Source: Pseudomonadota bacterium (GTDB taxonomy: Bacteria > CALINM01). Taken from it: 64,000 bases of DNA. Location: NCBI GenBank assembly GCA_026418415.1, contig JAOABK010000003.1, forward strand, positions 1,685-65,684, in the 5' to 3' direction. Below the pieces are notes generated by a model, which was given only the letters and a program-made list of their open reading frames with translations, was not told where the DNA came from and made no database searches. A program made the position numbers and the translations under genes. This document shows, piece after piece, positions 8,911 through 23,879 of the stretch. Every line of letters starts with the position of its first letter. The first letter of the stretch is position 1.

Positions 8911-10460
8911 AAAAACCCTCTTAGGGTCTTTACAATTTCTTCCTTTTTTGAAGTTGAATTAATTTTTAAAAGCCTAAAAGACTGCAATTCCTCAGGTGGT
9001 TCGAACTCCTTTATCTGTCTTTTTAAAATCTCTTCATGGGCATCTGATATATCTTCACCTCTTCTTCTTCTCTCCTCTATTCTTTTGAAAAGCTCTCCTT
9101 CTGGAGCAAAAAAGTTTATAAAGAATGGCTCAAAACCTGCTTCCTCACAAGCTTTTATAACAAGATCTCTCTGCCACCTTTTTAAGAATGTTGCATCAAG
9201 AATAACCTTCCTGCCCCTTTTAATATCTTCTAACATTAGTTCAATCATTGCTTTATATGTTTTAGCAGTCATATCACTGCTGTAAATATCTTGACCAAAG
9301 CCAACATATACATGCTTATCAGGGGTTTGTCCAGCAATCTTTTTTCTTATTTCATCTGAACGAATAACAATGTGGGATTCTAAAAACTCCTTTGCGATTG
9401 TACTTTTACCCGAACCCGAAAGTCCAAAAAAAATTATTGGATTAAACTTATTACTCTCCTTTAAATAACTCTCTGCGAGACTAAAATAATCCCTTGCCTT
9501 TTTTATTATTTTTTGTTTTTTATCATCTTCAGATTGGGTATCTGAAATGAAGCCCTCTACTTTACCCCTCACAACTGCTCTATAGACCTTGTAAAATTTA
9601 ATCAGATCTTCATTTATCGCCTCTTGATAACACTCTTCATAAACTTTTCTAACAATTGATGATAAGTCATATCTTCCATTGAATTCGAGGTCCATAAGTA
9701 AAAAAGATATATCATTCAAAACATCATCAATTCTGAACCTATTATTGAACTCAATGCAATCAAAGATTACCGGTGGGGCAACAAGAGAAATGTGTTGAGA
9801 ATGTAAATCTCCATGTATCTCTTTCACAAAACCCGTTTTCTTTCTGTTGTAAAAGAGCCCCTTTTTTGTTTTTAAAAAATCCCTTGTGTAGGATTTTATT
9901 TTATTATAAGTCTGGTTGTCTATTGTCTTTCCTATGTAAGGTTTTACCTGTTCAAAATTCTCTTCACAGCTAAAAACTGTGTTGCTATAAATACTCATTT
10001 TACCTTTGTAAGGGGGTATGGTTTTATGAAATTCCGCAATATGTTTCGCAACTTTATCGACCACATTATAAAGTACACAACCATTTTGAATTTTATTAAA
10101 AAGTATGGTTTTATCATCAATACGATTCATTTTAATAGCATATTCAACAATTTTTGCCCCTCGACTTTTTTTAAAGGAATATCCTCTATTTGAATAATAT
10201 ATTGGCAAAACCCCAAGATATAAGTCCTTAGATAACCTTGAATTTAATATAACCTCTCTATGGCAGTAAAATCTTCTTCTTTGAAGAGTCGTAAAATCTA
10301 AAAATCCAAAATTAACTGGTTTCTTTATTTTATAAACGTATTCACCAGCGATAAAAACATGGGATATGTGGGTCTCGATATGCTTTATATCCTGAGTTTT
10401 ATGGGAATAACTGGTTGGATCTAAAAAAAAATCAAGTAAAGTTTTTTCTGGATTAAGCAT
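8907..10460 (-). CDS. Bifunctional phosphotransferase-fold (APH-like) / P-loop kinase protein
   Basis: N-terminal kinase-like region (HGDLHSQHISL) and C-terminal Walker A (FFGLSGSGKSTIAKEF); overlaps neighbours by 4 and 8 nt. Confidence 0.55.
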   Translation of the reverse strand: MLNPEKTLLDFFLDPTSYSHKTQDIKHIETHISHVFIAGEYVYKIKKPVNFGFLDFTTLQRRRFYCHREVILNSRLSKDLYLGVLPIYYSNRGYSFKKSRGAKIVEYAIKMNRIDDKTILFNKIQNGCVLYNVVDKVAKHIAEFHKTIPPYKGKMSIYSNTVFSCEENFEQVKPYIGKTIDNQTYNKIKSYTRDFLKTKKGLFYNRKKTGFVKEIHGDLHSQHISLVAPPVIFDCIEFNNRFRIDDVLNDISFLLMDLEFNGRYDLSSIVRKVYEECYQEAINEDLIKFYKVYRAVVRGKVEGFISDTQSEDDKKQKIIKKARDYFSLAESYLKESNKFNPIIFFGLSGSGKSTIAKEFLESHIVIRSDEIRKKIAGQTPDKHVYVGFGQDIYSSDMTAKTYKAMIELMLEDIKRGRKVILDATFLKRWQRDLVIKACEEAGFEPFFINFFAPEGELFKRIEERRRRGEDISDAHEEILKRQIKEFEPPEELQSFRLLKINSTSKKEEIVKTLRGFL

Positions 10461-11055
10461 TTTTTATCCTTATAATCCGTTTTTCTGTAACTATTATATC
10501 CATCTTTTGATCATAGTAACCTAATGGGACCTTTTCTATAATCTGCAATTCAAAAGCTATTCCAATTTTCTTAACCTCAGGTCTTAAATCAGGTAATAAT
10601 CTGTCATAAAAGCCACCGCCATATCCCATTCTACCTCCACTCTCATCAAAGGCACTTCCTGGAACAATAGCACAATCTATATCTTTAACATTAGCACTTT
10701 TGTGGATTTCAGGAGAGGGCTCTAAAATACCATATGCTCCTTCTTTCAATCCCTTTAGATTTTCAACATAGTAAAGCAAGAGTCTTTTATTTTCTACATC
10801 TGTAAGGGGAAGTATAACCTTTTTTTCTTCTTCAAAGCACCTTTCTATTATCGGGATTGTTCTTACCTCACTTCTAAAATTAACAAATAGAAAAATGTTT
10901 TTAGCTAACGTAAATTCACTAATTTTCCAAAGATTATCTTTTATCATACTACTTTTAAAAATAATTTCTTCTTCTGTAAGCTTATCTCTTTCTATTAGAA
11001 TTTTTTTTCTTAGCTCGTTTTTATAAATTTTTAGATTCATTTTGCGCCTCTTCAA
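10453..11055 (-). CDS. 5-formyltetrahydrofolate cyclo-ligase
   Basis: Hallmark GYGGGFYDRLL motif; ~200 aa. Confidence 0.8.
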   Translation of the reverse strand: MKRRKMNLKIYKNELRKKILIERDKLTEEEIIFKSSMIKDNLWKISEFTLAKNIFLFVNFRSEVRTIPIIERCFEEEKKVILPLTDVENKRLLLYYVENLKGLKEGAYGILEPSPEIHKSANVKDIDCAIVPGSAFDESGGRMGYGGGFYDRLLPDLRPEVKKIGIAFELQIIEKVPLGYYDQKMDIIVTEKRIIRIKNA

Positions 11056-11743
11056 TGAACTTTCTTATTGCAGAAACTGCATCTTTACTCATACTGATAA
11101 ATTCTACTCCCATACCAGCTGGATATTTAGATTTTTTCTTATTTTTTTCATCATTAATCCAGACAATTTTAGCCCATGTTTTTATAAGATTGCCTGTATT
11201 AGGTATAAGAAATTTCATTTCCAAAAGTGCACCCTCTTTTAATTGAACATCTCCAGCTAAAAATGCACCGCCCTCGCTTATATCAAGTATTGCACCCTTT
11301 TCCATCTTATCCTCAAAACCATAAAATGCGGGCATATTTATTTTTACTCTTTCTTTTTTTCTCTTATCCAATCTTAGAAACTCATTTACTATTGCTATAA
11401 AATCTTCCCGTGTGAATGGTTTTTTTAATATCCTGTTAACTTCAAGACCTTGAACAATCTTTTTTAGCTCATCATCAATAAATGCAGAAACCAAAACCAC
11501 TGGTATATCTTTAAAGGATTGATCTCCCTTTACTTGCTTAATAAATTCCAGTCCATTCATAACAGGCATTTCATAATCTACAAAAATTAGATCCGGTCTT
11601 ATCACATTAACTATTTCAAGCCCCTCTTTGCCATTAAAGGCAGTAAAGATTTCACAATCAATATTTGATAAGTAGTTTTTCTCTAATTCGAGAAAAAATT
11701 TTACATCGTCAATAAGAAGAATTTTAGAATTCATAGACACCAT
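11021..11743 (-). CDS. Response regulator receiver domain fused to PilZ (c-di-GMP-binding) domain
   Basis: REC motifs (ILLIDD..., DLIFVDYEMPVMNG, KPF) followed by PilZ signature (RKKERVKI...DISEGGAFL). Confidence 0.75.
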   Translation of the reverse strand: MVSMNSKILLIDDVKFFLELEKNYLSNIDCEIFTAFNGKEGLEIVNVIRPDLIFVDYEMPVMNGLEFIKQVKGDQSFKDIPVVLVSAFIDDELKKIVQGLEVNRILKKPFTREDFIAIVNEFLRLDKRKKERVKINMPAFYGFEDKMEKGAILDISEGGAFLAGDVQLKEGALLEMKFLIPNTGNLIKTWAKIVWINDEKNKKKSKYPAGMGVEFISMSKDAVSAIRKFIEEAQNESKNL

Positions 11744-11801: not shown

Positions 11802-12608
11802 TTATTTACTTTGTCTTATCAGCATACTCAGTATAAGGATAAGAAGATTAATCAAAACAATTGTCGCTCCTGTAGGTAGATTTAAAGCAAATGAAACAAC
11901 AATGCCAGACAAAACTGATAGAATGCTAAAAAAACAGGATATGATAATTGAGGATTTAAAACTTTTTGCAAATTGAAGAGCTGAGACATTAGGTAAGATT
12001 AGAAAAGAGGAAACAAGCATTATCCCAATTATTTTCATGGATAAAACAACAGTTAAAGAAGTAAGCAAAATTAGTATCCCGTTAATCATTTTTGTATTGA
12101 TACCCGATACTTTTGCTAACTCTTCATCAAAAGTAGAAGAAATCAATTTATTATAAAGTGCAATTATGAAGCCAATTACTATTAGAGAAAGTAAAATAGA
12201 TAAAATCATCTCTTCAAAGGAAATTGTTAGAATATTACCAAAAAGGAAACTAAATAAATCTACATTAAACCCCCCTGCTATACTTGCCATGATAATTCCC
12301 AAAGAAATTCCTGCTGATGAGACAATACCAATTGCTGTATCGCCGGATAACTTGGTTTTATCTATAAGTTTGAGTATTCCTAAACCACTTATTAGTGTTA
12401 CTGGTATTGCCATATAAAGGGGATACATTTGCAAAAGTAATCCCAACGCAACCCCACTTAAAGTTACATGTGCAAGTCCATCACCTATTAAAGAAAGCCT
12501 TCTTAATACAAGAAATATACCCAAGGATGAACATAAAATAGCAATAAAAACACCTGTGATTATTGCTCTTTGAATGAAACCAAAATTGAGTAGCTCAATT
12601 ACATCCAT
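11802..12608 (-). CDS. znuB: Zn/Mn ABC transporter permease (ABC-3 family)
   Basis: Polytopic membrane protein with ZnuB-like N-terminus (GIFLVLRRLSLIGDGLAHVTLSGVALGLL). Confidence 0.8.
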   Translation of the reverse strand: MDVIELLNFGFIQRAIITGVFIAILCSSLGIFLVLRRLSLIGDGLAHVTLSGVALGLLLQMYPLYMAIPVTLISGLGILKLIDKTKLSGDTAIGIVSSAGISLGIIMASIAGGFNVDLFSFLFGNILTISFEEMILSILLSLIVIGFIIALYNKLISSTFDEELAKVSGINTKMINGILILLTSLTVVLSMKIIGIMLVSSFLILPNVSALQFAKSFKSSIIISCFFSILSVLSGIVVSFALNLPTGATIVLINLLILILSMLIRQSK

Positions 12609-12707
12609 TTCTTACTCCAGGCTTTAATCAATCCTATCTCATCTTATTATTAAAATGTAAAAAAATTTTATCCTTGGAGCTATATTCTAATTAATTCTCA
12701 TCTACTA

Positions 12708-13445
12708 TTAATGCCTATGACATATAATATGTTGTGAACCATACCCAAAATAATCGGACATTTTCTCAGACTTACAAAAATCATCAAAAGTCCCAAAAAA
12801 TATTATTTTTCTATCAAAATACATAAGTTTTTTTGCATACCTTCCAGCATTGCCAGTATCATGGGTTACAAGAATTATTGTGACACCTTTATCTGAATTG
12901 AGATGCCTTAATACCTCAAAAAATCTTTCTCTCGTCTCTGGATCCAAAGCAGTTGTTGGCTCATCAAGTATAAGGATTTCTGGATCTCCAACAAGTGCTC
13001 TTGATATTAAAACTCTTTGAAGCTGGCCACCCGAAAGCTCTGTAATATTTTTATCTCTAAGTTCTAATATTCCAAGCATTTCAAGAGCTTCATCAACTTT
13101 TTCATAATCCTCCTTTTTAAATCTTACAAAACTCTTACTAACCAACCCAAGGGCAACTATTTCTTTAACAGTAGCTGGAAAAAAGGGGCTTAAATTAATT
13201 TTCTGGGGGACATATCCAATTCTATTCCAATCTAAAAATGACTCGATGGGTACATTAAATAATTTAACCTCTCCCTCATCTTTTTTTACTAAATTTAACA
13301 TAGCCTTAAGTAATGTGCTCTTACCTGAGCCATTAGGACCTGATAGAGCAACATAATCCCCTGCTTCTATAGCAAAGGATACGTCTAAAAAAATATTAAC
13401 ATCTTCGTATTTTACTGCTAAATTTTTTACCTCTATTACTGGCAT
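12708..13445 (-). CDS. znuC: Zn/Mn ABC transporter ATP-binding protein
   Basis: Walker A GPNGSGKST, signature LSGGQLQRV, Walker B ILILDEPT; His-rich C-terminus. Confidence 0.8.
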   Translation of the reverse strand: MPVIEVKNLAVKYEDVNIFLDVSFAIEAGDYVALSGPNGSGKSTLLKAMLNLVKKDEGEVKLFNVPIESFLDWNRIGYVPQKINLSPFFPATVKEIVALGLVSKSFVRFKKEDYEKVDEALEMLGILELRDKNITELSGGQLQRVLISRALVGDPEILILDEPTTALDPETRERFFEVLRHLNSDKGVTIILVTHDTGNAGRYAKKLMYFDRKIIFFGTFDDFCKSEKMSDYFGYGSQHIICHRH

Positions 13446-14374
13446 TCTAAACCCATTCTAAACTGCTTTAAATTGTTTTCCATTATTTCTAAAAAACTAA
13501 TACCCCTATCTAAGTCATCTTTAGAGACATTATGGGCGGGATTAATTTTTAACAAAGATACACCAGCTTCCATTGATAAAACATTCGCTATACGAGGTGA
13601 CATTAGTTCTTCATAAAATACATATTTAATATTGTGCTTTTTTATACTATCAATCATTTCTGCAATTCTTTTTGGTGTGGGCTCTTCATCGGGTGATAAA
13701 CCCTGATAGGCAGAAATATATTTCAAACCATAACGCTCAGTGAGATACCCAAAAGCAAAATGTCCAGCATGGTAAAAATATTTATTTTTACAGTTTTTTA
13801 GTCCCTGTTTATATTTCTCATCAATTATATCTAAGGCTTTTTTGTAAGAATTAGCGTTTTCTATATAAAACTCCCTGTTTAAAACATCCTTAGCAATCAC
13901 CCCTTCTAATATATTATCAATCATAACTTTAGCATTTTCAAAATCTAACCAGATATGGGGATCTATCTCATGATTGTGAAAGTGGCCATTATGTGAGAAA
14001 GTATCCTCTTTTTTAGCAATTCGTCTTTTTAAAACTCCCCTGCTTGTATCAATAACAAGGAGTTTTTTATTATCCGTGCTTCTTATAATTTTTTCCGCCC
14101 ACCTTTCCATCTCTTTACCAGTATAAACAAATATATCAGCCCTGCTAATTTTCACAATATCTTCTGGTTTGGGTTCAAAATTGTGGGCATCAACCCCCGG
14201 CGGAAGAAGCAGTTCAACTCTAACTTTATCTTTACCAATATGTTTACAAAAATCATAGAGAGGAAAAAGGGTTGTAATAATTAATATTCTATTGTCAGGA
14301 GCAATTTTTTTTTGATCCTTACAACAAAAAAGCAGTAATAATAGGATAATTAGAAATAAGGACCTAAATTTCAT
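13436..14374 (-). CDS. znuA: Periplasmic metal (Zn)-binding protein, ABC-3 SBP family
   Basis: Signal peptide; ZnuA/TroA-like motifs; His-rich loop SHNGHFHNHEIDPHIWLD. Confidence 0.8.
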   Translation of the reverse strand: MKFRSLFLIILLLLLFCCKDQKKIAPDNRILIITTLFPLYDFCKHIGKDKVRVELLLPPGVDAHNFEPKPEDIVKISRADIFVYTGKEMERWAEKIIRSTDNKKLLVIDTSRGVLKRRIAKKEDTFSHNGHFHNHEIDPHIWLDFENAKVMIDNILEGVIAKDVLNREFYIENANSYKKALDIIDEKYKQGLKNCKNKYFYHAGHFAFGYLTERYGLKYISAYQGLSPDEEPTPKRIAEMIDSIKKHNIKYVFYEELMSPRIANVLSMEAGVSLLKINPAHNVSKDDLDRGISFLEIMENNLKQFRMGLECQ

Positions 14375-14816
14375 TATTCTTTACTATTACCCCCTGATCT
14401 TTATTTAAACAATTACTACAAAACCCATTTACTTGAAAAAGATGAGAAATTATAGATCCTTTCAATATTTCCCTGACAAATTCCACTATTTTTATCTCTG
14501 GACAGTAATCAATATCATAGACCCTTTTGCAGGACAGGCAAACAAAATGGTGGTGATGATTTTTATTATTGCAAAGATAATAATAGAGTTGTCTATCGGT
14601 GTGAATTACTCTAAATATTACACCACCTTCAGCCATCTCCTCTAAATTTCTATATACTGTTGGTAGCCCAATCTTTTTAAATTTTATTTTCATCTCTTTC
14701 CAGATCTCTTCGGGGCTCATAAAATAACGCCTCTTTCCAAGGATATTCAAGATTTCAAGTCTTTTTGGAGTAACCTTAAGCTTTAGATTTCTAAGTATAT
14801 GAGAATAATTATTCAT
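14364..14816 (-). CDS. zur: Fur-family metalloregulator, probably Zur
   Basis: Fur-like HTH (KVTPKRLEILNIL), HHHH and CxxC metal motifs; first gene of the znu operon. Confidence 0.75.
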   Translation of the reverse strand: MNNYSHILRNLKLKVTPKRLEILNILGKRRYFMSPEEIWKEMKIKFKKIGLPTVYRNLEEMAEGGVIFRVIHTDRQLYYYLCNNKNHHHHFVCLSCKRVYDIDYCPEIKIVEFVREILKGSIISHLFQVNGFCSNCLNKDQGVIVKNNEI

Positions 14817-14935: not shown

Positions 14936-15286
14936 TTGTTATATGATATTTACATGCCCATACCATTAAAAATAGTTATAACACTCTTAATAATTATGCT
15001 TGCTTCAGAATTAGGAAAAAGATTGCCCCATCTGAGTGGTCTTATAGCTACTATGCCAATCACCACACTTTTGGTTCTCCTATGGCTAAATTACGAAACA
15101 GGAACTAACTATCAGATTTTAACTAAATTCACGTTAGCGGTAATTTTTGGTATTTTCCCAAGCATTTTCTTTTTCATAGTACTTTATTTTTGCTTTTTAA
15201 AGGGATTTTCTTTTTATATATCTCTATTTTTTGCCTTTCTCGTATGGGGCTTTGGTGCTATTATTCATCAGTTTTTTTTGAGGTAA
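14936..15286 (+). CDS. Small integral membrane protein (4 predicted TM)
   Basis: 116 aa, strongly hydrophobic throughout; the only long + strand ORF here. Confidence 0.4.
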   Translation: MLYDIYMPIPLKIVITLLIIMLASELGKRLPHLSGLIATMPITTLLVLLWLNYETGTNYQILTKFTLAVIFGIFPSIFFFIVLYFCFLKGFSFYISLFFAFLVWGFGAIIHQFFLR

Positions 15287-16901
15287 TCTTAAATTTTTGT
15301 AAAAACCAAGGCACTATCATAACTAAAGATATTATTAGTATTGAAATGATGAGAGGGAAAAAATTGCCAGTAGAAATTAGTTGAAAAATACTACTGCCAA
15401 AATATACATAAGCAATGCAAGCAGGTAACATAAATATAAATGATGCAATAACATAATGGATGAATTTAACAGGCGTTATACCAAATAGATAGTTCAAAAC
15501 TGGGAAGGGAAAAATAGGAATGATTCTTGTAAAAGCAACAACCTTCCAGCCATTTTTATCCACAAGATCTTTTAGTCTTTTCCATCTTTTTACTCCGAAA
15601 AGTTTTTTAACATAATCATGGAATATATACCTTGAAAGCAAAAAGGGTATAGAACATCCAATAGTTGCTCCCGATATGGCAAATATAACCCCTAAGACTG
15701 GTCCCCAAATTATTCCTGATAATATGGTTAGAAGGAGGCTTGGAAAAAAGAAGGTTGGTCCAATAGAATAAATTAAAAGATAAACCACTGGTGCAAGAAT
15801 CTTTGAGCTCCTTACTAAATTAAGAATTCTTTCAATGGTAATTAATCCTGTCTTTTCAAGATTATAAACAAGTATGCTCCCCAAAATAATAATCATTAAT
15901 ACAAAAATTTTAAAAAAATTTAGTTTTGAGAGTGTTGCCACCAATATTTGGTTTATTAATTTATGAGCTTCTCCTATAGGTTTCTTTAAATCAATGCCTA
16001 AAATGTTTTCATAAATATGTTTAGAAGGCAGATTTCTTTTCATAAACCTATTTCTACATCCCATGCATGATGTAAGAACTGGGGTTGAGTTTGCATGGAT
16101 ATTATTCAAAAACTCTTGAGCCACCTCTTTATCTAATCTATTCGCCAAGCCTCCAAGGCCACAGCATCTGGGGTTATCAATTTTCCCAACAATTGTTTTT
16201 TTAAAACTCATCTCTATGTTTACCTTAATCTCATTATTTACAAAGTTGGGACAAGGATTATGTAATATAAAACCCTTTTCCTCATCCGATACATCTTCTT
16301 CAGTAACTAATTCTGATACATGAATTAATTCAAATTCAGGTAAATATTCTTTAAAAATCTTCTTACAGTTAGCACAGGCAAAAATTATTTTTGAAACACC
16401 TGCATTCTCAAGTTTTTCAGACAAAGATTTAGAAAAATCTCGAAGTGCGGACAAATCACCATTTTGCCACATGGGATCACCACAACAATGGATAGCAAGA
16501 CCAACCTTCGATCCAATTTTTTTTTCAATCCAGTTTTTTAAGCCAAATACTAATTTTCTGCCCAAGGAAATAAGTGAACAGCCGGGGAAAAAAATCGTTT
16601 CCCTATCTTCAATATGCTGGAACGGGAAAGAGCTTAATCTATTTGCATATCTTCTTGAACCAATTATCCCTTCAATAATAGGTTTCGTTAGGGTCCCTTC
16701 CTTTATCAGAATACTTTTAACTTCATAAATAGCCTTTGATGGCTCGATATCTAATGGACAAGCCCTATCGCAAAGCCGACAATTGGTACATATAAAAGCA
16801 GATTTATCTTTTTTTAGATATATCTCCTTAGGATATCCATATTTTTTCAAATAGGGACAAACAAGGCATGAGCCACAAAGTGTACACTCTAAAATCTTCA
16901 C
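15261..16901 (-). CDS. Fusion protein: 2x[4Fe-4S] ferredoxin + two CCG domains (HdrD/GlcF/GlpC-like) fused to a C-terminal DedA/TVP38/TMEM64 membrane domain
   Basis: CTLCGSCLVCP and CTNCRLCDRACP clusters; CCG motifs (FFPGCSLIS...CCGDPMW, HNPCPNF...CCGLGG); C-terminal multi-TM DedA-like region (RYIFHDYVKKLFG...FTRIIPIFPF). ORF track starts it at 16955 (TTG). I place the start at GTG 16899-16901, preceded by GGGAG SD and overlapping the upstream TGA stop (GTGA coupling). Confidence 0.6.
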   Translation of the reverse strand: MKILECTLCGSCLVCPYLKKYGYPKEIYLKKDKSAFICTNCRLCDRACPLDIEPSKAIYEVKSILIKEGTLTKPIIEGIIGSRRYANRLSSFPFQHIEDRETIFFPGCSLISLGRKLVFGLKNWIEKKIGSKVGLAIHCCGDPMWQNGDLSALRDFSKSLSEKLENAGVSKIIFACANCKKIFKEYLPEFELIHVSELVTEEDVSDEEKGFILHNPCPNFVNNEIKVNIEMSFKKTIVGKIDNPRCCGLGGLANRLDKEVAQEFLNNIHANSTPVLTSCMGCRNRFMKRNLPSKHIYENILGIDLKKPIGEAHKLINQILVATLSKLNFFKIFVLMIIILGSILVYNLEKTGLITIERILNLVRSSKILAPVVYLLIYSIGPTFFFPSLLLTILSGIIWGPVLGVIFAISGATIGCSIPFLLSRYIFHDYVKKLFGVKRWKRLKDLVDKNGWKVVAFTRIIPIFPFPVLNYLFGITPVKFIHYVIASFIFMLPACIAYVYFGSSIFQLISTGNFFPLIISILIISLVMIVPWFLQKFKITSKKTDE

Positions 16902-18694
16902 AAACTTATACTCCCAAAACAAGATGAACCCCTTTTTGCTGTACAGGCATAACAATATTCAGAAGTAATAATTTTTCTTCCCTTTAGTTCCTCAAAGGAC
17001 CCTATTTTATTTATATGGGATACTTTCAATCCTGAGGCATTATTAAAATCACAATCATAAATAGTTCCGTCAAATCCAATGTTTACAAGATTTTTGCACA
17101 TAAGCCCTTTTATATTTTCCCTATTAAAATTTGATGCTAATAAAAACATATATTTATCATAGAGATTACTTAACTTAAGATTTTCCTCAAATCTTCCGAG
17201 AGGCACATTTGTTATCGAAATAAGTTTATTAAATTTAATTCCCAAATCGCTTTTAAGCGCTTTTTCAAATTTTTGATAACTTTCTTCCGAGGGAAGTTCA
17301 AAATTAACAGGATTATAAACAATATTTAGCTCAAATTTTTCACCAAATCCTATACGATTGAGTTTTTTTAGCATTTTTATTGAATCTTCAAAAGATCCCT
17401 TTCCCCTTTGCCTTTCGAATTCAGTCATATCAAAGGATGGAAAAGATACATAAAGTGCCACCCTTGAATCGCTTAATCTTTCCAACAACTCTTCTCTAAC
17501 TAACAAAGCGGTTAGATTAGTTCTAAAAATTATCTTTGGAAAATACTCCTTAGCCTTATCTAATAGAAAACTGATATGGGGGTTTAATTCTGGTGCACCT
17601 CCAGTAATATCGATTATCTCATATTTATTAATATCAATAAGTTGAAAAAGTCTTTCCATCGTTACCAATTCCATCACCCTATTATCATAAGGATTTGCAG
17701 AGAGATGGCAGTGGCTACAAGTTTGATTACATACTCCACCCACATTAATTTGTATGACCCTTATCTCTTCTTTTTTTAACTCTATCTTATTTTTTCTTAT
17801 ATTTTCTTCGAAAGAGACATAAACATTATTATTACCACAGCAATCAAAATACTTCACAATCTTCTCGCCCTTATAAGCAGAAACGGTTATAGAGAAAAAA
17901 TTTATATCCTCAACAACTCTCCAAGGCTCAGATTCTTTCTTTATTACTACCACATCTTTAAATCCCGCTTCTCTGAAGGCATTGATAAAGTCTTTTTCTT
18001 CTAACGCCCCTGATATGCATCCAGACCATAGTTCGGGATCTTCCTTTAAATATGGAGGGACTTTTTTATCAGATACAATATCACTTATTACCGCCCTACC
18101 ATTCTTTTTTAGCACTCTATATATTTCTCTAAAAAGCTCTTTTTTATCCTCATCTCTCACAAGATTAAGAACACAGTTGGATACCACAACATCAATACTA
18201 TCATTTTTAATTAGTGGACTTTCCCTTTCTAACTCTCTTATTGTGAACTCAAGATTAATGTAGTCTTCAATATTTCTGATTGGGTTTTCCTTTAAATAAT
18301 TTTCTAATTTTTCTAAATCAAGCCTTAAATTCTGTATTCTACCCCTTCTGAACTCAAAATTTTTATACCCCAATTTTTCTGCCAAATGATTTTCATATTT
18401 TCTTGCAAGATTTAACATCTCTGTATTCATATCAACACCTATTACCTTTCCTTCTTTACCCACTATCTGAGCAATAATATAAACTAACTTACCGCCACCA
18501 GAGCCTAAATCAAGCACTGTCTCTCCTTCTAATATATATGCAGAAGGATCACCACAACCATAATCCTTCTCTATTATCTCTTGAGGAATAATCTTTAGTA
18601 ATTCATTGTCATATTTTGTAGGACAACAAAGAGTTAAATCCTTTATTTGTGAAGCTTTTTTATATCTTTCATAAACCATTCTTTCTTGATCCAT
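16898..18694 (-). CDS. Fused arsenite S-adenosylmethionine methyltransferase (ArsM-like) / radical SAM protein (ArsS-like, arsenosugar-type rSAM with Cys-rich C-terminus)
   Basis: N-half: ArsM motifs YGCGDPSAYILEGETVLDLGSGGG, SNCVLNLV (As-binding Cys), WSGCISGA. C-half: radical SAM CNQTCSHC in the context IQINVGGV...; Cys-rich tail (CYAC...SSCFG). Single uninterrupted 598-aa ORF. Confidence 0.65.
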   Translation of the reverse strand: MDQERMVYERYKKASQIKDLTLCCPTKYDNELLKIIPQEIIEKDYGCGDPSAYILEGETVLDLGSGGGKLVYIIAQIVGKEGKVIGVDMNTEMLNLARKYENHLAEKLGYKNFEFRRGRIQNLRLDLEKLENYLKENPIRNIEDYINLEFTIRELERESPLIKNDSIDVVVSNCVLNLVRDEDKKELFREIYRVLKKNGRAVISDIVSDKKVPPYLKEDPELWSGCISGALEEKDFINAFREAGFKDVVVIKKESEPWRVVEDINFFSITVSAYKGEKIVKYFDCCGNNNVYVSFEENIRKNKIELKKEEIRVIQINVGGVCNQTCSHCHLSANPYDNRVMELVTMERLFQLIDINKYEIIDITGGAPELNPHISFLLDKAKEYFPKIIFRTNLTALLVREELLERLSDSRVALYVSFPSFDMTEFERQRGKGSFEDSIKMLKKLNRIGFGEKFELNIVYNPVNFELPSEESYQKFEKALKSDLGIKFNKLISITNVPLGRFEENLKLSNLYDKYMFLLASNFNRENIKGLMCKNLVNIGFDGTIYDCDFNNASGLKVSHINKIGSFEELKGRKIITSEYCYACTAKRGSSCFGSISL

Positions 18695-18706: not shown

Positions 18707-19378
18707 TTATTTATAAAATTTGATTAGTTTCTCTGGTTTGAATCCTGCCAAGAAAAGAATAACTATAAAAACATTTTTAAGACTATGAAGTATTGGATAA
18801 AAAAGTCCACCTTTTTCAATTCTTCTTGATGAGACCAGTACTTCTTTATTAATCATCTTAACTTTTCCAGCCTTTCTTAGCCTTAAAATAAGGTCTAAAT
18901 CCTCAAGAAAGGGGTAATTTTTTATACCACCAATAACCCTCAAAATTTCTTTTTTAAAAAAAATCGCCTGATCTCCATAGGGAAGATAATGTAACTTGGA
19001 ACGAATATTAGCAAATATCTCAACTAATTTCACAAAAAAATTATTTGATAGATACTTTAATCTGAAAAAACCTGCAATTTCATTGTCCTTTAATTCAAAA
19101 TCCTTTAAGGTAACCTCTTTAGATAAAATAGTATCAGCATGAAGAACTAATATAATATCTCCTTGAGCATTTTCAATGCCCTTATTAATTTGTAATCCCC
19201 TTCCTTTAGGTGAATTAATTATTTTACAATTAAACTTTTTTGCTATATCGATTGTGTTATCTGTGCTTCCACCATCTATAACAATAACTTCATAAGGCTT
19301 TAGATCCTGCAATCGTTGTAATGTCTTCTCTAAAAAAAGGGCTTCATTATAGACTGGAATTATAATAGATAATCTCAT
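18707..19378 (-). CDS. Small GT-A/family-2 glycosyltransferase-like transferase (resembles the 'rSAM/selenodomain-associated transferase 2' group)
   Basis: LSIIIPVYNE, DxD-like VIVIDGGSTD, ~220 aa single domain; immediately upstream of the ArsM/ArsS fusion. Confidence 0.6.
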   Translation of the reverse strand: MRLSIIIPVYNEALFLEKTLQRLQDLKPYEVIVIDGGSTDNTIDIAKKFNCKIINSPKGRGLQINKGIENAQGDIILVLHADTILSKEVTLKDFELKDNEIAGFFRLKYLSNNFFVKLVEIFANIRSKLHYLPYGDQAIFFKKEILRVIGGIKNYPFLEDLDLILRLRKAGKVKMINKEVLVSSRRIEKGGLFYPILHSLKNVFIVILFLAGFKPEKLIKFYK

Positions 19379-19381
19379 TTA

Positions 19382-19792
19382 TTATAGACACATCTCTTTA
19401 TAAGGAAATTCCTGAATACCACCTTCGAGTATATATAGTCTTTTTTCCTCTATTCCTCTACTTCTCATATATTCATAAGTATTTTTTGCCGCACCACCAC
19501 CTCTTGGACAAACTATAACAATTTCTAAGTTATCTGACTTTACCTTTTCTACTATCCTATCTAATTTTGCCTTATCCTGATCGCTCTTTACAGGATATGC
19601 CCCAGTAGCAATAGATCCCTTTAAGTGCTTTTTATTAAAGTCTTCATCTTTTTGAACATCAATTATATGGATTTTTTTACCACTATCCACCCATTTTTTT
19701 AACACCTCTGCTTTCAGATAGTTATAGTTTTGTGCCTCTAAACTATTAATAAAAAAAACCAGAAAAAATAAAACAAATAATATCCTTTGCAT
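19382..19792 (-). CDS. Secreted rhodanese-domain sulfurtransferase-like protein
   Basis: Signal peptide; single rhodanese fold with active-site Cys loop VIVCPRGGGAAK. Confidence 0.65.
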   Translation of the reverse strand: MQRILFVLFFLVFFINSLEAQNYNYLKAEVLKKWVDSGKKIHIIDVQKDEDFNKKHLKGSIATGAYPVKSDQDKAKLDRIVEKVKSDNLEIVIVCPRGGGAAKNTYEYMRSRGIEEKRLYILEGGIQEFPYKEMCL

Positions 19793-19801
19793 TATTCCTC
19801 C

Positions 19802-20446
19802 TTACTTAAGCTTATAAATCAAAATAACTGGATAACCATCTTTTGCTGGTAGAATCATATCATTTCCCCGAAAGTAGGAGTTTGGAGTAATAAATCTCTG
19901 AATAGAATTTGTCATTGGATAATTTGCATTACTTGTTATTGAAATCCAGCAACTTTCAAGACAGGTAATACACCCTGTTTTCTGTTCTTCTGAAGCTAAT
20001 CTATTTCCACCAAATTTAATTCTGAAACCCCTTCCAGAGGAATCTTTAAAAATATTTTCTAATTGATACTCCTTACCATTAACAATAGCTGTAACTATAA
20101 GTTCATCGCCTTCTACATATTTGCCCACACTATCTTTATTGAGATTGTTGCCTGGTTTTGCACCGATCTTAATTAGGGCATCATAAAAATCAAGTTGATT
20201 ACAATAGGCTTTTAAAATAGCCCTGTCACCGAATCTCCCATCTTTGAAAACTACTCCCCAATGGACAGTTGGCTGGTAAAGGTGCATAACATTTACTTCT
20301 GTATATATAAGAACCGCTTTATTTCTTTCATCAATTATTAAAGGTTTTTCCTTTATGGGAAGTACATTTAAAGAAACAGAAAAAGCTTTTGAACAAAGAA
20401 AAACAAGAATAAACAAAAAAACCTTACTCGTCTTTACCATAACCAA
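19802..20446 (-). CDS. Hypothetical secreted protein with CxxCxxxC motif
   Basis: Signal peptide; conserved-looking core with TGCITCLESC motif; first gene of the minus-strand operon. Confidence 0.4.
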   Translation of the reverse strand: MVMVKTSKVFLFILVFLCSKAFSVSLNVLPIKEKPLIIDERNKAVLIYTEVNVMHLYQPTVHWGVVFKDGRFGDRAILKAYCNQLDFYDALIKIGAKPGNNLNKDSVGKYVEGDELIVTAIVNGKEYQLENIFKDSSGRGFRIKFGGNRLASEEQKTGCITCLESCWISITSNANYPMTNSIQRFITPNSYFRGNDMILPAKDGYPVILIYKLK

Positions 20447-20628: not shown

Positions 20629-21870
20629 GTGAAGATAAAAGTCTTTTTTATCAAAAATAGTCATAATTTCTATAGTTTAGCTACTCTTCTTTCCGCAGTA
20701 GAGAACTTACAAAATATCTATCCTGAAATAATCCCCTATGCCTTCTTAATAGACCTGAATATTAAAAACCTTCCCTATGATAAAATTATTTTTTGTTTTT
20801 CCTATAACACAATTTCTTTCTATAGTGAATATGATGAGCTAAAAAAAACTATTAAGAATTACAAGAGTGATAAAACTTATTTTCTCGCAGGCGGTCCTCA
20901 CCCTTCTGCTAAGCCTGAAGAATTACTAAATATGGGATTTAATACCGTCATAATAGGTGAGGGGGAACAAGCAATTATTGATTATCTCCAAATGCTGAAA
21001 AATAATATAAATCCACCAAGGATATTAAGAAAACAAGTTTCAGAGTTAGACTATTTCCCTTCTTTCCCATGCAAGTCTTTTACTTACAAACCAATAGAAA
21101 TTTCAAGAGGCTGTCCTTACGGTTGTTACTTTTGCCAGACTACCTATCTTTTTTCGAAAAAAATGAAACATAGAAGCATAGAAAATATCAAGTCCCACGT
21201 TACTAACGCCTTCGAAAGAGGCATTAAAGACTTTAGATTTATTACACCAAATGCTTTGGGTTATGAAAGTCATGGCAACAAACCAAATACAAAGGCAATA
21301 AAAACCCTACTTTCTTCAATCAGAGATATTATTAAAGATAAAGGGCGAATCTTTTTTGGTACCTTTCCTTCTGAGGTTAGACCTGAGTTTCTAAATGAAG
21401 AAGTTTTGAAAATTTTAAAAGATCATGTTGATAACAAAAGAATTCATATTGGTTTGCAATCGGGTAGTGAATCGATGCTAAAAAAATCTCATCGGGGGCA
21501 TACTGTATCAGACGTTGAAAAGGCAATAGAAGTTTGTATTAAAACTGGTTTTGAAATAGATATTGATATAATATTAGGCATGCCAAATGAAACACAAGTT
21601 GATATGGAAAGGACTATGGATTTTATAAAAAAATATGCAAGTGAAAAGTTAAGTTTTCATGTTCATTACTTTATCCCATTACCAGGGACCCCTTGGTCAG
21701 ACTATCCTCCCACCCCGCTTCCTGAACAATTTAAAAAGGAACTCGAAGTATTAGTCGGAAAAGGAAGGCTTTGGGGGGCATGGAAACGTCAAATGGAGTA
21801 TTTTAAGCTAATTGAAACAAAAAAAACTTTTAATATTAATGAATTAGATTTAAAATTAACCTCATGTTAG
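20629..21870 (+). CDS. B12-binding-domain / radical SAM protein
   Basis: N-terminal Rossmann-like B12-binding-type region; radical SAM CxxxCxxC (CPYGCYFC). Confidence 0.6.
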   Translation: MKIKVFFIKNSHNFYSLATLLSAVENLQNIYPEIIPYAFLIDLNIKNLPYDKIIFCFSYNTISFYSEYDELKKTIKNYKSDKTYFLAGGPHPSAKPEELLNMGFNTVIIGEGEQAIIDYLQMLKNNINPPRILRKQVSELDYFPSFPCKSFTYKPIEISRGCPYGCYFCQTTYLFSKKMKHRSIENIKSHVTNAFERGIKDFRFITPNALGYESHGNKPNTKAIKTLLSSIRDIIKDKGRIFFGTFPSEVRPEFLNEEVLKILKDHVDNKRIHIGLQSGSESMLKKSHRGHTVSDVEKAIEVCIKTGFEIDIDIILGMPNETQVDMERTMDFIKKYASEKLSFHVHYFIPLPGTPWSDYPPTPLPEQFKKELEVLVGKGRLWGAWKRQMEYFKLIETKKTFNINELDLKLTSC

Positions 21871-23879
21871 AAAAGATTAAAATTAAAAAGCCTATTTTGC
21901 ATATTTCTTTGTATATACTCTGCATAGCTATGTTTGCTCAATTTTCTCTAAGCCTTATTCTAAATGTTGTTGGATACTATTTTGATATGAAGGAGACAAT
22001 TAGAAAAACTGGGGAATCAAAAATAGATAAAATAAACAATTTTATTGAAAGAATTGTTTCCCTGGGAGTACCCATAAACGAAATTGCACAATTAAATCAA
22101 GAGTTAGAAAAAGAAGTAAAGGATGACGTATTTCAATTTTTCACTGTAGTAGATGAAAATAATAATATCCTCTATCACAGCGATCCAATAGTGGTAGGAA
22201 CAAAATTCCCTATCGAACAAAATAAATTAGAGGCAAAGAGAGAATTAAAAGTAACAATATTTCCCTATAACGATGTTTTTCTTATTTCAAAACCAATTTA
22301 CGATTATAAAAAGACAAAAGTTGGCTTCATAATTGCAGCATATTCTCCAAACATAATCTATAAGAAAGTCTTCTGGGTTTTCTTAAGAGCCTCCTTTGCT
22401 TCATTTATAACTGGAATTTTTGGTATTGCTTTAATAGTTTACTTTTATAAAAAACAGATTCAAAAACCTTTAACTACATTGTTAGAAGGGCTTGAAAAAT
22501 TTAAAGAAGGTAAATTTGAAGAAATTCCAATAGTAGATGAAGATACTGAAATCAGTGCGATCATCTCTTCAATTAACAATATGGTAACAACTCTAAAAAA
22601 GACCTTTATAGAAAAAGAAACTCTTCTAAATAAACTAAAAAATGAAGAGGAAAAATTAAGAAAAATTATAGAAAAAACTGAAATGGGAATAGCGGTAATA
22701 AAAAATGATAAATTTGTATTTGCAAATCCTGGTTTTTTAAAAATATTAAAAATAGATTATACCTATCATTTAATTGGCAAGAGTATATACGATTTTTTCT
22801 CGCCCAGTGAAAGATTTTATTTTCGTGAAGCCTTCAATGAAGTATTAGAAACAGGACAGAAAAAAACTTTTGACACTGTTAAAATGTATGATGCACAAAA
22901 TAATGAAATCTTTTGTTCTCTGGAAGCTTCGATTCTTGAAACTTCAGAATGGGGCAAAAAACTTCTTAATCTTACCTTCCAAGATATAACAGAGAAAGTA
23001 TATTTTATGGAAGAACTAAAATCCAAAAATAAAGAGTTAGAGCAACTCATTGAAAAATATAAGTCAACACAGTTAGCTCTTCAAATAGCAAACGAAAAAT
23101 TAGAAAATGCATTGACAGCTGTAGAAAAGGCAAATGAAGAGCTCAAGAAGATTGATAATATGAAAGATGTTTTCTTCTCAACAATAACTCATGAATTAAA
23201 AACACCTCTTTCCCTAATTCATGGTTATATAAGCATTTTAAAATCTGATAGTAATGTTAAAGCATCAAATATGACGCTTGATATTGTAAATGCCATCGAA
23301 AGAGGAGCAAAAAGACTAACAAGCCTGACTGAAGAAATAATGGAGCTTATGAAAATCAGGTCTGGCAAACTGGTTCTTAATCCGACGCTAACCTATTTAA
23401 AATTTATAATAAACCCTCTAATAAATGAGTTAGATCCTCTATTGAAATCAAAAAATTTACATATTGAATTATACAACATTGAACAAATGCCCATGATCAG
23501 TTTAGATACAAAGAAGTTTGAAACTGCATTAAGAAATATAATCGTAAATAGTATAAAATATTGTAAAGAAAACGGAAAAATCATTATAAACGCCACACAA
23601 GAAAATATAGACGATAAAAAGTTTATCAAAATAGCCATTTCAGATGAGGGGTGCGGGATCTCTCCTTTTAATATAGAAAAGATTTTTACCGAGTTCTTTA
23701 CATTACCTCCACCTCAATCTGGAAAGGAACTTCCAATTAGAGGAACTGGTTTAGGCTTATCAATAGCAAAGGGTATAATAGAAGCCCATGGCGGTAAAAT
23801 ATGGGCAGAAAGCCCTGGCTATGATCCAGAAAACAATCCAGGTACAACCTTTTTTATAACAATTCCTATTATTGATTAA
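21864..23879 (+). CDS. Sensor histidine kinase (2 TM periplasmic sensor, HAMP-like, PAS, HisKA, HATPase_c)
   Basis: H-box HELKTPLSLIHGY; G-boxes GTGLGLSIAKGIIEAHGG; TM segments; PAS-like region. No cognate response regulator adjacent. Confidence 0.8.
   Translation: MLEKIKIKKPILHISLYILCIAMFAQFSLSLILNVVGYYFDMKETIRKTGESKIDKINNFIERIVSLGVPINEIAQLNQELEKEVKDDVFQFFTVVDENNNILYHSDPIVVGTKFPIEQNKLEAKRELKVTIFPYNDVFLISKPIYDYKKTKVGFIIAAYSPNIIYKKVFWVFLRASFASFITGIFGIALIVYFYKKQIQKPLTTLLEGLEKFKEGKFEEIPIVDEDTEISAIISSINNMVTTLKKTFIEKETLLNKLKNEEEKLRKIIEKTEMGIAVIKNDKFVFANPGFLKILKIDYTYHLIGKSIYDFFSPSERFYFREAFNEVLETGQKKTFDTVKMYDAQNNEIFCSLEASILETSEWGKKLLNLTFQDITEKVYFMEELKSKNKELEQLIEKYKSTQLALQIANEKLENALTAVEKANEELKKIDNMKDVFFSTITHELKTPLSLIHGYISILKSDSNVKASNMTLDIVNAIERGAKRLTSLTEEIMELMKIRSGKLVLNPTLTYLKFIINPLINELDPLLKSKNLHIELYNIEQMPMISLDTKKFETALRNIIVNSIKYCKENGKIIINATQENIDDKKFIKIAISDEGCGISPFNIEKIFTEFFTLPPPQSGKELPIRGTGLGLSIAKGIIEAHGGKIWAESPGYDPENNPGTTFFITIPIID

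Follow-up and report, generated by a model that had tools for sequence, protein, structure and literature searches.

An HdrB-like Fe-S/CCG module fused to a TVP38-type DedA domain in an ArsM-ArsS operon: a candidate membrane component of organoarsenical biosynthesis

The last gene of a five-gene operon in a Pseudomonadota bacterium (GTDB CALINM01) encodes a protein in which an iron-sulfur (Fe-S)/CCG module is covalently joined to a DedA-type membrane domain, and it overlaps a gene for an ArsM-like methyltransferase fused to the radical-SAM protein ArsS. Both genes lie in a 64,000-nucleotide stretch of DNA (assembly GCA_026418415.1, contig JAOABK010000003.1, positions 1,685 to 65,684), hereafter the window, to which all coordinates refer unless another locus is named. 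The protein is an Fe-S/CCG variant of a known but uncharacterised kind, a reductase combined with a TVP38-type DedA protein. Judged by sequence comparison, it appears to be a functional analogue of the pair formed by a flavin disulfide reductase and DedA, namely its Fe-S, oxygen-independent counterpart. On an even balance of the evidence, it may serve the ArsM/ArsS organoarsenical ('arsenosugar-type') pathway as its membrane component, importing and reducing for it. This reading draws on the domain architecture, the conservation of cysteines, topology signals, the operon, synteny and the replacement of one reductase by another that is not homologous to it.

Results

The fusion gene and its start site

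The gene and the parts of its product are as follows.
15261..16901, minus strand: Fe-S/CCG-DedA fusion gene, 546 amino acids, GTG start at 16901-16899, stop codon at 15261-15263
16898..16901, minus strand: GTGA start/stop overlap with the ArsM-ArsS gene, whose TGA is 16900-16898
16911..16915, minus strand: GGGAG, Shine-Dalgarno-like, 9 nucleotides before the GTG
16722..16901, minus strand: two ferredoxin-type cysteine motifs, residues 1-60 (C6/9/12/15 and C38/41/44/48-P49), with HdrC and SdhB-type matches
16356..16592, minus strand: first CCG motif, residues 104-182 (C108-X30-C139C140-X35-C176-X2-C179), with HdrB matches
16047..16268, minus strand: second CCG motif, residues 212-285 (C217-X28-C246C247G-X31-C279-X2-C282), by HdrB alignment
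15849..15989, minus strand: residues 305-351, interfacial helix (invariant N317, near-invariant R318) and transmembrane helix TM0 (329-351), by alignment and model
15291..15794, minus strand: DedA domain, residues 370-537, by PF09335, YdjX homology, alignment and model

The open reading frame (ORF) that contains the gene (15261..16955, minus strand) is present in our reading of the window. An earlier note on this DNA, made from the letters alone, had placed the start at GTG 16899-16901, with GGGAG 9 nucleotides upstream, and had taken the GTGA overlap as a sign of translational coupling with the ArsM/ArsS gene. The minus-strand reading, the NCBI gene model and the N-termini of homologues all agree with that start. 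NCBI holds an identical 546-residue protein with the same GTG ('MAG: VTT domain-containing protein [Proteobacteria bacterium]', P0001), and the nearest homologues (50-63% identity) share the start residue (MKI..C.LCG). The overlap can be read directly in the window and is kept in L001, the most similar genome locus (58% identity, with shared synteny), where a TTG start overlaps the ArsS stop as TTGA and the same GGGAG stands at the same spacing. These comparisons indicate that translation starts at the GTG and is coupled to ArsM-ArsS through the GTGA. A TTG start at 16955 was considered and rejected: its 18-residue extension occurs in no homologue, the NCBI model uses the GTG, and L001 keeps the overlap. 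In a scan for promoters and terminators, sites were no more numerous than in shuffled sequence.

An HdrB-like Fe-S/CCG module

Residues 1-304 contain exactly 18 cysteines, all of them inside two ferredoxin-type and two five-cysteine CCG motifs. In an alignment of 104 full-length relatives (mean column identity 41%), C38/41/44/48 and the ten cysteines C108, C139, C140, C176, C179, C217, C246, C247, C279 and C282 are invariant, and C6/9/12/15 are conserved in at least 90% of sequences. The second ferredoxin motif (C38/41/44/48-P49) has the canonical form CX2CX2CX3CP; the first is one residue short in the window protein, CX2CX2CX2CP as against CX2CX2CX3CP in most relatives.

Profile searches gave a mixed result for the domain composition that the earlier note had put up for checking. 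PF09335 is well over its cutoff and PF02754 (CCG) barely so (25.1 bits against 20.6, with no single stretch passing alone), whereas the ferredoxin-type profiles Fer4_8 (22.1 against 27 bits) and Fer4_17 (16.9 against 22.2 bits) stay under theirs. The cysteine motifs thus appear to be stronger evidence for the module than the Pfam scores. Sequence matches of the family profile in the PDB were led by 9ojn_A (a 1042-residue 'iron-sulfur-binding reductase', E 1.7e-13), followed by HdrB and HdrC. An AlphaFold model of the fusion is confident throughout, including the junction between the modules (mean confidence score pLDDT 91.7, pTM 0.83), and its top Foldseek matches in the PDB are HdrB chains (probability 1.00, target TM 0.49-0.54, E about 2e-3). 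Together with the conserved cysteines, these matches bear out the proposal of two ferredoxin-type and two CCG motifs in an HdrD/HdrB-like arrangement, and the module is predicted to hold two cubane [4Fe-4S] clusters and two non-cubane clusters bound by the CCG motifs.

The module resembles HdrD, HdrB and DsrK in carrying two ferredoxin-type motifs followed by two CXnCCXmCXXC motifs, with ten invariant cysteines, HdrB being the best match by fold. By contrast with HdrDE, HdrABC and DsrMK, it has no cytochrome b or HdrA partner and is instead covalently joined to DedA; no gene for a cytochrome b partner (HdrE or DsrM) is present in the operon. The NCBIfam scan returned no Hdr or Dsr equivalog for the fusion protein. 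Among NCBIfam models, the nearest to the protein is NF045663 ('pyridine nucleotide-disulfide oxidoreductase/dicluster-binding protein'), which is also the named family most closely related to the Fe-S/CCG module; it scores 133 bits, well short of its cutoff of 530 (E 9e-39; profile positions 317-639 of 759 on residues 14-307). The first 316 positions of this profile are unmatched, however; that they hold a pyridine nucleotide-disulfide oxidoreductase (PNDR) part, and that the family lacks DedA, is known from its description.

A TVP38/YdjX-type DedA domain

In the C-terminal half, residues 386-503 match positions 1-122 of the 123 in the PF09335 (VTT_dom) profile, with a score of 87.9 bits (cutoff 33.9, E 9e-25). 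Identity to E. coli YdjX is 27% across the whole domain (215 residues, E 2e-24), and to a cyanobacterial TVP38 protein 36%; YdjZ matches at E 1.5e-14. Relatives carry the JGI label 'YdjX (TVP38/TMEM64 family)', and the region of this type spans residues ~329-537 when TM0 is counted. By this homology, established against YdjX and YdjZ rather than against COG0586 members, the C-terminal module is a genuine DedA domain of the TVP38/YdjX type, and the doubt that the earlier note had raised on this point falls away. The domain has no meaningful match among PDB sequences.

Topology was assigned by analogy with TMEM41B, which was determined to be N-in/C-in, with prolines that turn its re-entrant loops (bioRxiv 10.1101/2020.12.18.423352). 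Re-entrant loop 1 (Y378, G381-P382) would be followed by transmembrane helix TMH1 (GxxxGxxxG, R424), a cytoplasmic stretch rich in lysine and arginine (425-460, including R459), re-entrant loop 2 (P462-x-x-P465, N470), TMH2 (FMLPAC495IAY) and a C-terminal transmembrane helix. In the 104-sequence alignment, P382 and P462-x-x-P465 are invariant at the expected turns of the re-entrant loops, as are R424 and R459. C495 (FMLPACIAY) is at least 90% conserved, specific to the family, and the only conserved cysteine of the membrane part. The charge distribution (ten lysines or arginines in the stretch 425-460, and a basic C-terminal tail) and the TMEM41B analogy are consistent with an N-in/C-in topology and a cytoplasmic Fe-S module.

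Within the DedA superfamily, proteins of the YdjX type fall into the TMEM41/TVP38 branch (bioRxiv 10.1101/2020.12.18.423352). According to the accessible part of PMC10127716, COG0398 DedA proteins are mostly single-domain proteins whose commonest fusions are with PF07992/PF02852, and the subfamily is tied to aerobic metabolism; for the bacterial TVP38/YdjX type, the same text proposes a role as scramblase and leaves the tie to aerobic metabolism unexplained.

The fusion is common in anaerobes

Relatives occur in 473 GTDB species genomes, in a scan of one genome per species from which 80 loci were fetched. Full-length homologues of the fusion fall into more than 100 database clusters; the best 120 matches are mostly full-length (~540-615 residues) and carry PF09335. 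Carriers include Nitrospirota/Thermodesulfovibrionales, Caldimicrobium, Smithella/Syntrophaceae, Geobacter/Desulfuromonadales, Desulfobulbaceae and the cultured Dissulfurispira thermophila, and the Fe-S/CCG-DedA architecture is common in anaerobes.

A few short matches, such as P0094 (303 residues, the Fe-S/CCG part alone, 58% identity), would suit an assembly error or frameshift joining two genes. Full-length matches dominate across many assemblies, sources and phyla, however; both halves were found together by tblastn in 78 of the 80 loci, the alignment is conserved, and the structural model is confident at the junction. An artefact of this kind is therefore excluded, its probability being vanishingly small, and the covalent fusion that the earlier note described stands.

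The ArsM-ArsS operon

The operon runs YdjY, rhodanese, TIGR04283 GT2 glycosyltransferase, ArsM-ArsS and fusion, with gaps of 9, 3 and 12 nucleotides and then the 4-nucleotide overlap. The four genes upstream of the fusion are:
16898..18694, minus strand: ArsM-like methyltransferase fused to radical-SAM ArsS, 598 amino acids; TIGR04167 at 309.6 bits (cutoff 300) in the C-terminal half
18707..19378, minus strand: TIGR04283-family 'arsenosugar biosynthesis' GT2 glycosyltransferase, 210.9 bits (cutoff 182)
19382..19792, minus strand: single-domain rhodanese, N-terminus signal-peptide-like by eye
19802..20446, minus strand: YdjY-domain protein, first gene of the operon, N-terminus signal-peptide-like by eye; 36% identity to E. 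coli YdjY, E 9e-34

The fusion is the sole polytopic membrane protein of the operon. The ArsM half of the upstream protein matches NF040538 (306 bits, cutoff 500) and PRK11873 (195.7 bits, cutoff 263), both under cutoff, and the protein carries ArsM-type cysteine motifs (LCCP, YGCGDP, SNCVLN, SGCISGA). The YdjY gene probably starts at 20440, as in the NCBI model (212 residues). Homologues of TIGR04282, TIGR04169, YedF, DsrE, TusA, DUF3047 and MauE were absent from the 64-kb window.

ArsM and ArsS are fused in both orders among relatives, as ArsM-ArsS (~600-690 residues) and as ArsS-ArsM (~660 residues); besides the window, loci L001, L005, L006, L009, L012, L016, L017, L024, L042, L045, L047 and L050 carry such a fusion. 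That the two have been fused independently in either order suggests that methylated trivalent arsenic is channelled directly between the enzymes. The YdjY protein is 60-80% identical in relatives where the fusion is ~40% identical, and has an invariant three-cysteine motif, TGCxTCLESCW. Its AlphaFold model (pLDDT 85) found no Foldseek analogue in the PDB (best E 0.9), and no PDB sequence matched; YdjY may be an exported, cysteine-rich protein whose fold has no solved relative.

Gene context in relatives

Context was counted in the 29 of the 80 loci that have at least 8 kb on both sides, using tblastn and ORF clustering and scoring ArsS-pathway genes within 10 kb. ArsS was found in 52% of these well-flanked loci, and TIGR04283 and TIGR04282 in 48% each; at least one ArsS-pathway gene was present in 17 of 29, and at least one of these or rhodanese, YdjY or YedF in 25 of 29. 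Across the 80 loci, the fusion is in many cases directly flanked by ArsS, TIGR04283 or TIGR04282, with ArsM also nearby, and other neighbours are exported rhodaneses, YdjY, YedF (TIGR03527), AhpD-like TIGR04169 (6 of the 29 well-flanked loci), DUF3047, MauE and double-cubane reductase.

In the cultured D. thermophila (AP022873.1, 3294-12723 of the fetched locus), the cluster comprises ArsS, TusA/YedF-like, rhodanese, GT2, the fusion, DUF2064 and DsrE-like genes, with a YedE-like Sulf_transp gene upstream. An ArsS that stands without ArsM, as here, raises the question whether this 'ArsS' acts on arsenic.

A search with the Fe-S/CCG domain profile alone was swamped by stand-alone '(Fe-S)-binding protein' matches of ~370-440 residues; by this sequence search, which brought up no PNDR-fused NF045663 member, the stand-alone module is an ordinary and very large family. 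Two contexts of stand-alone members were inspected, and neither is arsenic-related: one member adjoins an unrelated GT2 gene, and the other, a paralogue in Desulfosarcina ovata (L081, 6743-9949), is flanked by an HGD-D-type gene and a BcrAD/BadFG activase gene. Genes for double-cubane reductase (NF040772) occur in 6 of the 29 well-flanked fusion loci (L055, L078 and L079 being named). The association of HGD-D, activase and double-cubane proteins may represent a separate, ATP-driven reductase module.

A flavin counterpart in aerobes

For comparison with aerobes, annotated plasmids were searched with the ArsS half and the neighbourhoods were read. In Acinetobacter portensis, arsS is followed by a gene for a 716-residue 'bifunctional TVP38/TMEM64 family protein/FAD-dependent oxidoreductase', then DUF547, TIGR04283, TIGR04282 and ArsM-like genes. 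Pseudanabaena galeata has the order TVP38, 'mercuric reductase', arsM, TVP38, arsS. On an unannotated plasmid of Cupriavidus sp. KK10 (PLSDB), ArsM-like and ArsS genes precede a PNDR gene (8931-10451), a DedA gene (10448-11176, 4-nucleotide overlap), and TIGR04283-like and TIGR04282-like genes, and in Burkholderia glumae a bifunctional DedA-PNDR gene lies ~2 kb from TIGR04282/TIGR04283/MTAP and ~10 kb from arsS. No DedA gene was found within ~9 kb of arsS on Hymenobacter and Thiodictyon plasmids, or within 8 kb on a B. thailandensis plasmid.

With the two TVP38 proteins of Pseudanabaena, the window DedA domain shares 34-36% identity (E about 1e-28), and with the A. portensis fusion 28% (E 2e-16). 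The flavin module carries a CxxxxC redox disulfide (GGDCLNYGCVPSK), which implies that both types of reductase do dithiol/disulfide chemistry. DedA homology and the shared position in arsS clusters together point to a recurrent reductase-plus-DedA unit, with a flavin PNDR in aerobes and phototrophs and an Fe-S/CCG module in anaerobes. Since NF045663 joins PNDR to Fe-S/CCG (by its description), all three pairwise fusions of PNDR, Fe-S/CCG and DedA exist.

The bifunctional TVP38/FAD oxidoreductases and the PNDR/TVP38 pairs thus share with the window protein a homologous DedA domain, a dithiol/disulfide-type reductase predicted to be cytoplasmic and the arsS/TIGR04283/TIGR04282 neighbourhood; in the Cupriavidus pair, the reductase also precedes DedA, as it does in the window fusion. 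The reductases themselves are unrelated (an FAD- and NAD(P)H-dependent class-I PNDR with CxxxxC, as against two predicted [4Fe-4S] clusters and two CCG motifs), and no PNDR domain (PF07992/PF02852) is found in the window protein. In the fusion named by NCBI, moreover, DedA is N-terminal, whereas in the window protein it is C-terminal, and the COG0398 branch of the flavin fusions is described as associated with aerobic metabolism (PMC10127716, accessible part), whereas the Fe-S form occurs in anaerobes. These sequence comparisons place the fusion outside both the Hdr/Dsr complexes and the bifunctional family named by NCBI.

The accessible text of PMC10127716 mentions PNDR-DedA fusions, and mentions neither a CCG fusion nor a link to arsS. 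We found no paper that describes either the Fe-S or the flavin form in arsenic clusters; the author of the earlier note had not recognised the architecture as characterised.

Related units occur outside arsenic clusters. E. coli K-12 has ydjX(DedA)-ydjY-ydjZ(DedA)-ynjA(AhpD-like)-ynjBCD(ABC)-ynjE(rhodanese)-ynjF (L084, 5402-13404), which shares with the window a homologous DedA, YdjY and a rhodanese, and with some relatives an AhpD-like protein. In contrast to the window, E. coli lacks both a fused reductase and ars genes, and has an ABC importer. A literature search found nothing on the function of ydjXYZ and no functional study of this cluster. On plasmids of Pseudoalteromonas (L092, 4610-14899) and Sphingopyxis (L093), a DedA-PNDR gene stands beside genes for TonB-dependent receptors and a CDP-alcohol phosphatidyltransferase, accompanied in Pseudoalteromonas by a YnjBCD-like ABC importer, DUF547 and a sterol-desaturase-family gene, and in Sphingopyxis by a nucleoside transporter gene. 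These gene families overlap those of the E. coli ydjXYZ-ynjABCD-ynjE-ynjF cluster. These contexts indicate that the DedA-reductase unit is not confined to arsenic clusters.

AhpD-like genes stand beside TVP38-type genes in E. coli, B. glumae, Acinetobacter and Sphingopyxis, and NCBIfam has an 'arsenite methyltransferase/AhpD domain selenoprotein' family. On the B. glumae plasmid (L091, 1-15100), the DedA-PNDR gene directly follows an operon of DUF2282, DUF692, DNA-binding-domain and DoxX genes in an island with merC and merR, and a second TVP38 gene adjoins an AhpD-like gene. In Synechocystis, arsM is slr0303 (PMC4010505), arsS is its co-transcribed neighbour (bioRxiv 10.1101/2022.09.23.509062), and slr0305 is a YdjX-type TVP38 protein (PMC3836016); these reports suggest a DedA-arsS linkage in the very organism in which ArsS was studied, and are offered as a lead only.

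Surroundings of the operon

A selA gene (L-seryl-tRNA(Sec) selenium transferase; TIGR00474, 498 bits) lies at 23869-25242 on the minus strand, 3.4 kb from the operon, from which it follows that the organism makes selenoproteins; several families of the neighbourhood have selenoprotein forms in NCBIfam. Divergent from the operon is a TIGR04013 B12-binding/radical-SAM gene (20629-21870, plus strand, 403.7 bits), found in the same position in L001. A convergent gene for a small PRK09272-like membrane protein (14936-15286, plus strand, 116 residues) shares 26 nucleotides with the 3' end of the fusion gene, and was not found in the 43 related loci whose flanks reach 3 kb or more on both sides. A Fur/Zur-like regulator gene, followed directly downstream by ZnuA-, ZnuC- and ZnuB-like ABC genes (11802-14816, minus strand), was assigned by reading the sequences, and its synteny is kept only in L001.

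Discussion

As a membrane component of the ArsM/ArsS pathway, the fusion would work as follows. A low-potential donor such as ferredoxin would reduce the cubane clusters, which would serve as the wire for electron entry, and electrons would pass to the two CCG clusters as a two-electron catalytic site. Where the DedA domain opens to the cytoplasm, this site would reduce either an As(V) species or a disulfide-type bond (S-S, S-As or S-Se); the domain itself would pass substrate between a periplasmic branch (YdjY, rhodanese) and a cytoplasmic branch (ArsM-ArsS, glycosyltransferase). Arsenic would thus be kept trivalent, and pathway thiols reduced, for methylation and 5'-deoxyadenosylation; AhpD-like CxxC proteins might act as intermediaries. 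We infer the electron donor, the substrate and the direction of transport.

Import with reduction on arrival, after the logic of MerT and MerA, is favoured. The likeness to that system is one of analogy only: a membrane conduit hands a thiol-reactive species to a dedicated cytoplasmic reductase, and the cyanobacterial PNDR bears the NCBI name 'mercuric reductase'. DedA is not homologous to MerT, however, and true MerA enzymes have a C-terminal cysteine pair, whereas the A. portensis PNDR does not. We favour import because the operon partners look exported (by eye), because importers or TonB receptors stand beside the DedA clusters of E. coli and Pseudoalteromonas, and because selenite resistance has been connected with a DedA mutant (Ledgham 2005, as cited in the accessible part of PMC10127716).

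Several observations weigh against the assignment to the arsenic pathway. Twelve of the 29 well-flanked loci have no ArsS-pathway gene within 10 kb, so that the co-occurrence with ars genes proposed for study in the earlier note is not universal; these twelve are mostly distant members (~30% identity) from Geobacter, Desulfuromonadales and Desulfobulbaceae. The D. thermophila cluster lacks ArsM, and arsenic is possibly not always the substrate. The Fe-S/CCG module also matches GlpC, LdhH and TfrB, and some enzymes with CCG domains catalyse reactions other than disulfide reduction. For the eukaryotic relatives of this DedA branch, lipid scrambling rather than solute transport is the reported activity (PMC10127716, accessible part), and our literature searches, on DedA/TVP38 with arsS, arsM or arsenosugars and on TIGR04282/TIGR04283, found no paper that links DedA/TVP38 to arsM/arsS.

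A broader proposal is that reductase-plus-DedA units, whether built on flavin reductases (in aerobes) or on HdrB-type Fe-S reductases (in anaerobes), couple translocation to the reduction of thiophilic metalloid or chalcogen species. DedA would then be a conduit, for example for arsenite, thioarsenate, or selenium or sulfane sulfur delivered by the periplasmic rhodanese and YdjY, and the fused CCG site would cleave an S-As, S-Se or S-S bond, or reduce As(V), on arrival. We regard this proposal as doubtful.

It is likewise unlikely, in our estimate, that the unit is a sulfur or selenium relay with no specificity for arsenic. On this account, DedA would move a persulfide, a thiosulfate-like anion or a selenotrisulfide delivered by rhodanese and YdjY; CCG would reduce it in the manner of DsrK acting on the DsrC trisulfide, feeding carriers of the TusA/YedF/DsrE type, and an ArsS-type pathway would be one client. 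Neighbours in relatives suit such a relay: they include YedF (TIGR03527, 179 bits), MauE and DUF3047, as well as rhodaneses that match NF041203 ((seleno)protein) and NF045521 (near-glycosyltransferase) weakly, both under cutoff. D. thermophila has YedE-like, TusA/YedF-like, rhodanese and DsrE-like genes and no ArsM; the E. coli ydj/ynj cluster has the same set of families without ars genes; distant members of the fusion family keep rhodanese or YdjY without ArsS; and selA is only 3.4 kb away in the window. Yet the window gene is translationally coupled to an ArsM-ArsS fusion with ArsM-type cysteine motifs, no YedF, DsrE or TusA gene occurs in the 64 kb, and the aerobic counterparts sit inside arsM/arsS clusters without a sulfur relay.

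That DedA acts as a lipid flippase or scramblase, with the reductase as a redox accessory, is decidedly unlikely. It would flip a lipid-linked intermediate or product of GT2, such as an arsenosugar phospholipid or a polyprenyl-phosphate-linked sugar, or recycle the carrier lipid, while the reductase acted on the arsenic head group or a partner enzyme. The grouping of YdjX-type DedA with the TMEM41 family favours this, as does the description of eukaryotic DedA homologues as phospholipid scramblases and of other bacterial DedA proteins as undecaprenyl-phosphate flippases (PMC10127716, accessible part). The fusion often lies between TIGR04283 (GT2) and TIGR04282, aerobic DedA-PNDR genes adjoin CDP-alcohol phosphatidyltransferase and sterol-desaturase-family genes, and E. 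coli ynjF stands beside ydj/ynj. A search of the window and the 80 anaerobe loci for such genes, however, returned one MTAP gene and no homologue of CDP-alcohol phosphatidyltransferase, DUF547, sterol desaturase, CcdA or YnjBC. Flipping, moreover, needs no reductase, which would leave two unrelated disulfide reductases unexplained, and gives the exported rhodanese and YdjY no obvious role. A quinone-coupled anchor, with DedA in place of HdrE, DsrM or a NarI-type subunit and a menaquinone link as in HdrDE and DsrMK, is very improbable. Many CCG proteins do act in membrane complexes, and 9ojn_A embeds its Fe-S/CCG part in a larger chain. Against this, C495 is the only conserved cysteine in the membrane part, we know of no DedA protein that binds haem or quinone, and the flavin reductases of aerobes, presumably fed by NAD(P)H by analogy with glutathione reductase and MerA, would need no anchor and yet pair with DedA.

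Two unrelated disulfide-type reductases, a flavin PNDR and an HdrB-type Fe-S/CCG protein, have thus been joined independently to the same DedA branch in the same position of arsS clusters. By association, this recurrent pairing is a strong clue that the role of DedA is tied to redox chemistry of thiols and disulfides or of metalloids, and it extends the DedA-reductase theme to strict anaerobes. Within organoarsenical biosynthesis, the fusion is a candidate for uptake or hand-off, for keeping arsenic trivalent and for re-reducing pathway thiols, and D. thermophila is a cultured carrier with a complete genome. If such units are translocation-coupled reductases, this would be the first biochemical function for bacterial COG0398 DedA proteins and a new class of substrate for non-cubane CCG clusters, and would fill a missing uptake or reduction step of organoarsenical biosynthesis; if they are instead general sulfur or selenium relays, HdrB-type chemistry would still be tied to a new kind of membrane partner. 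By sequence, the fusion is neither rare nor exotic, and it offers a handle on the function of TVP38-type DedA proteins and on organoarsenical biosynthesis.

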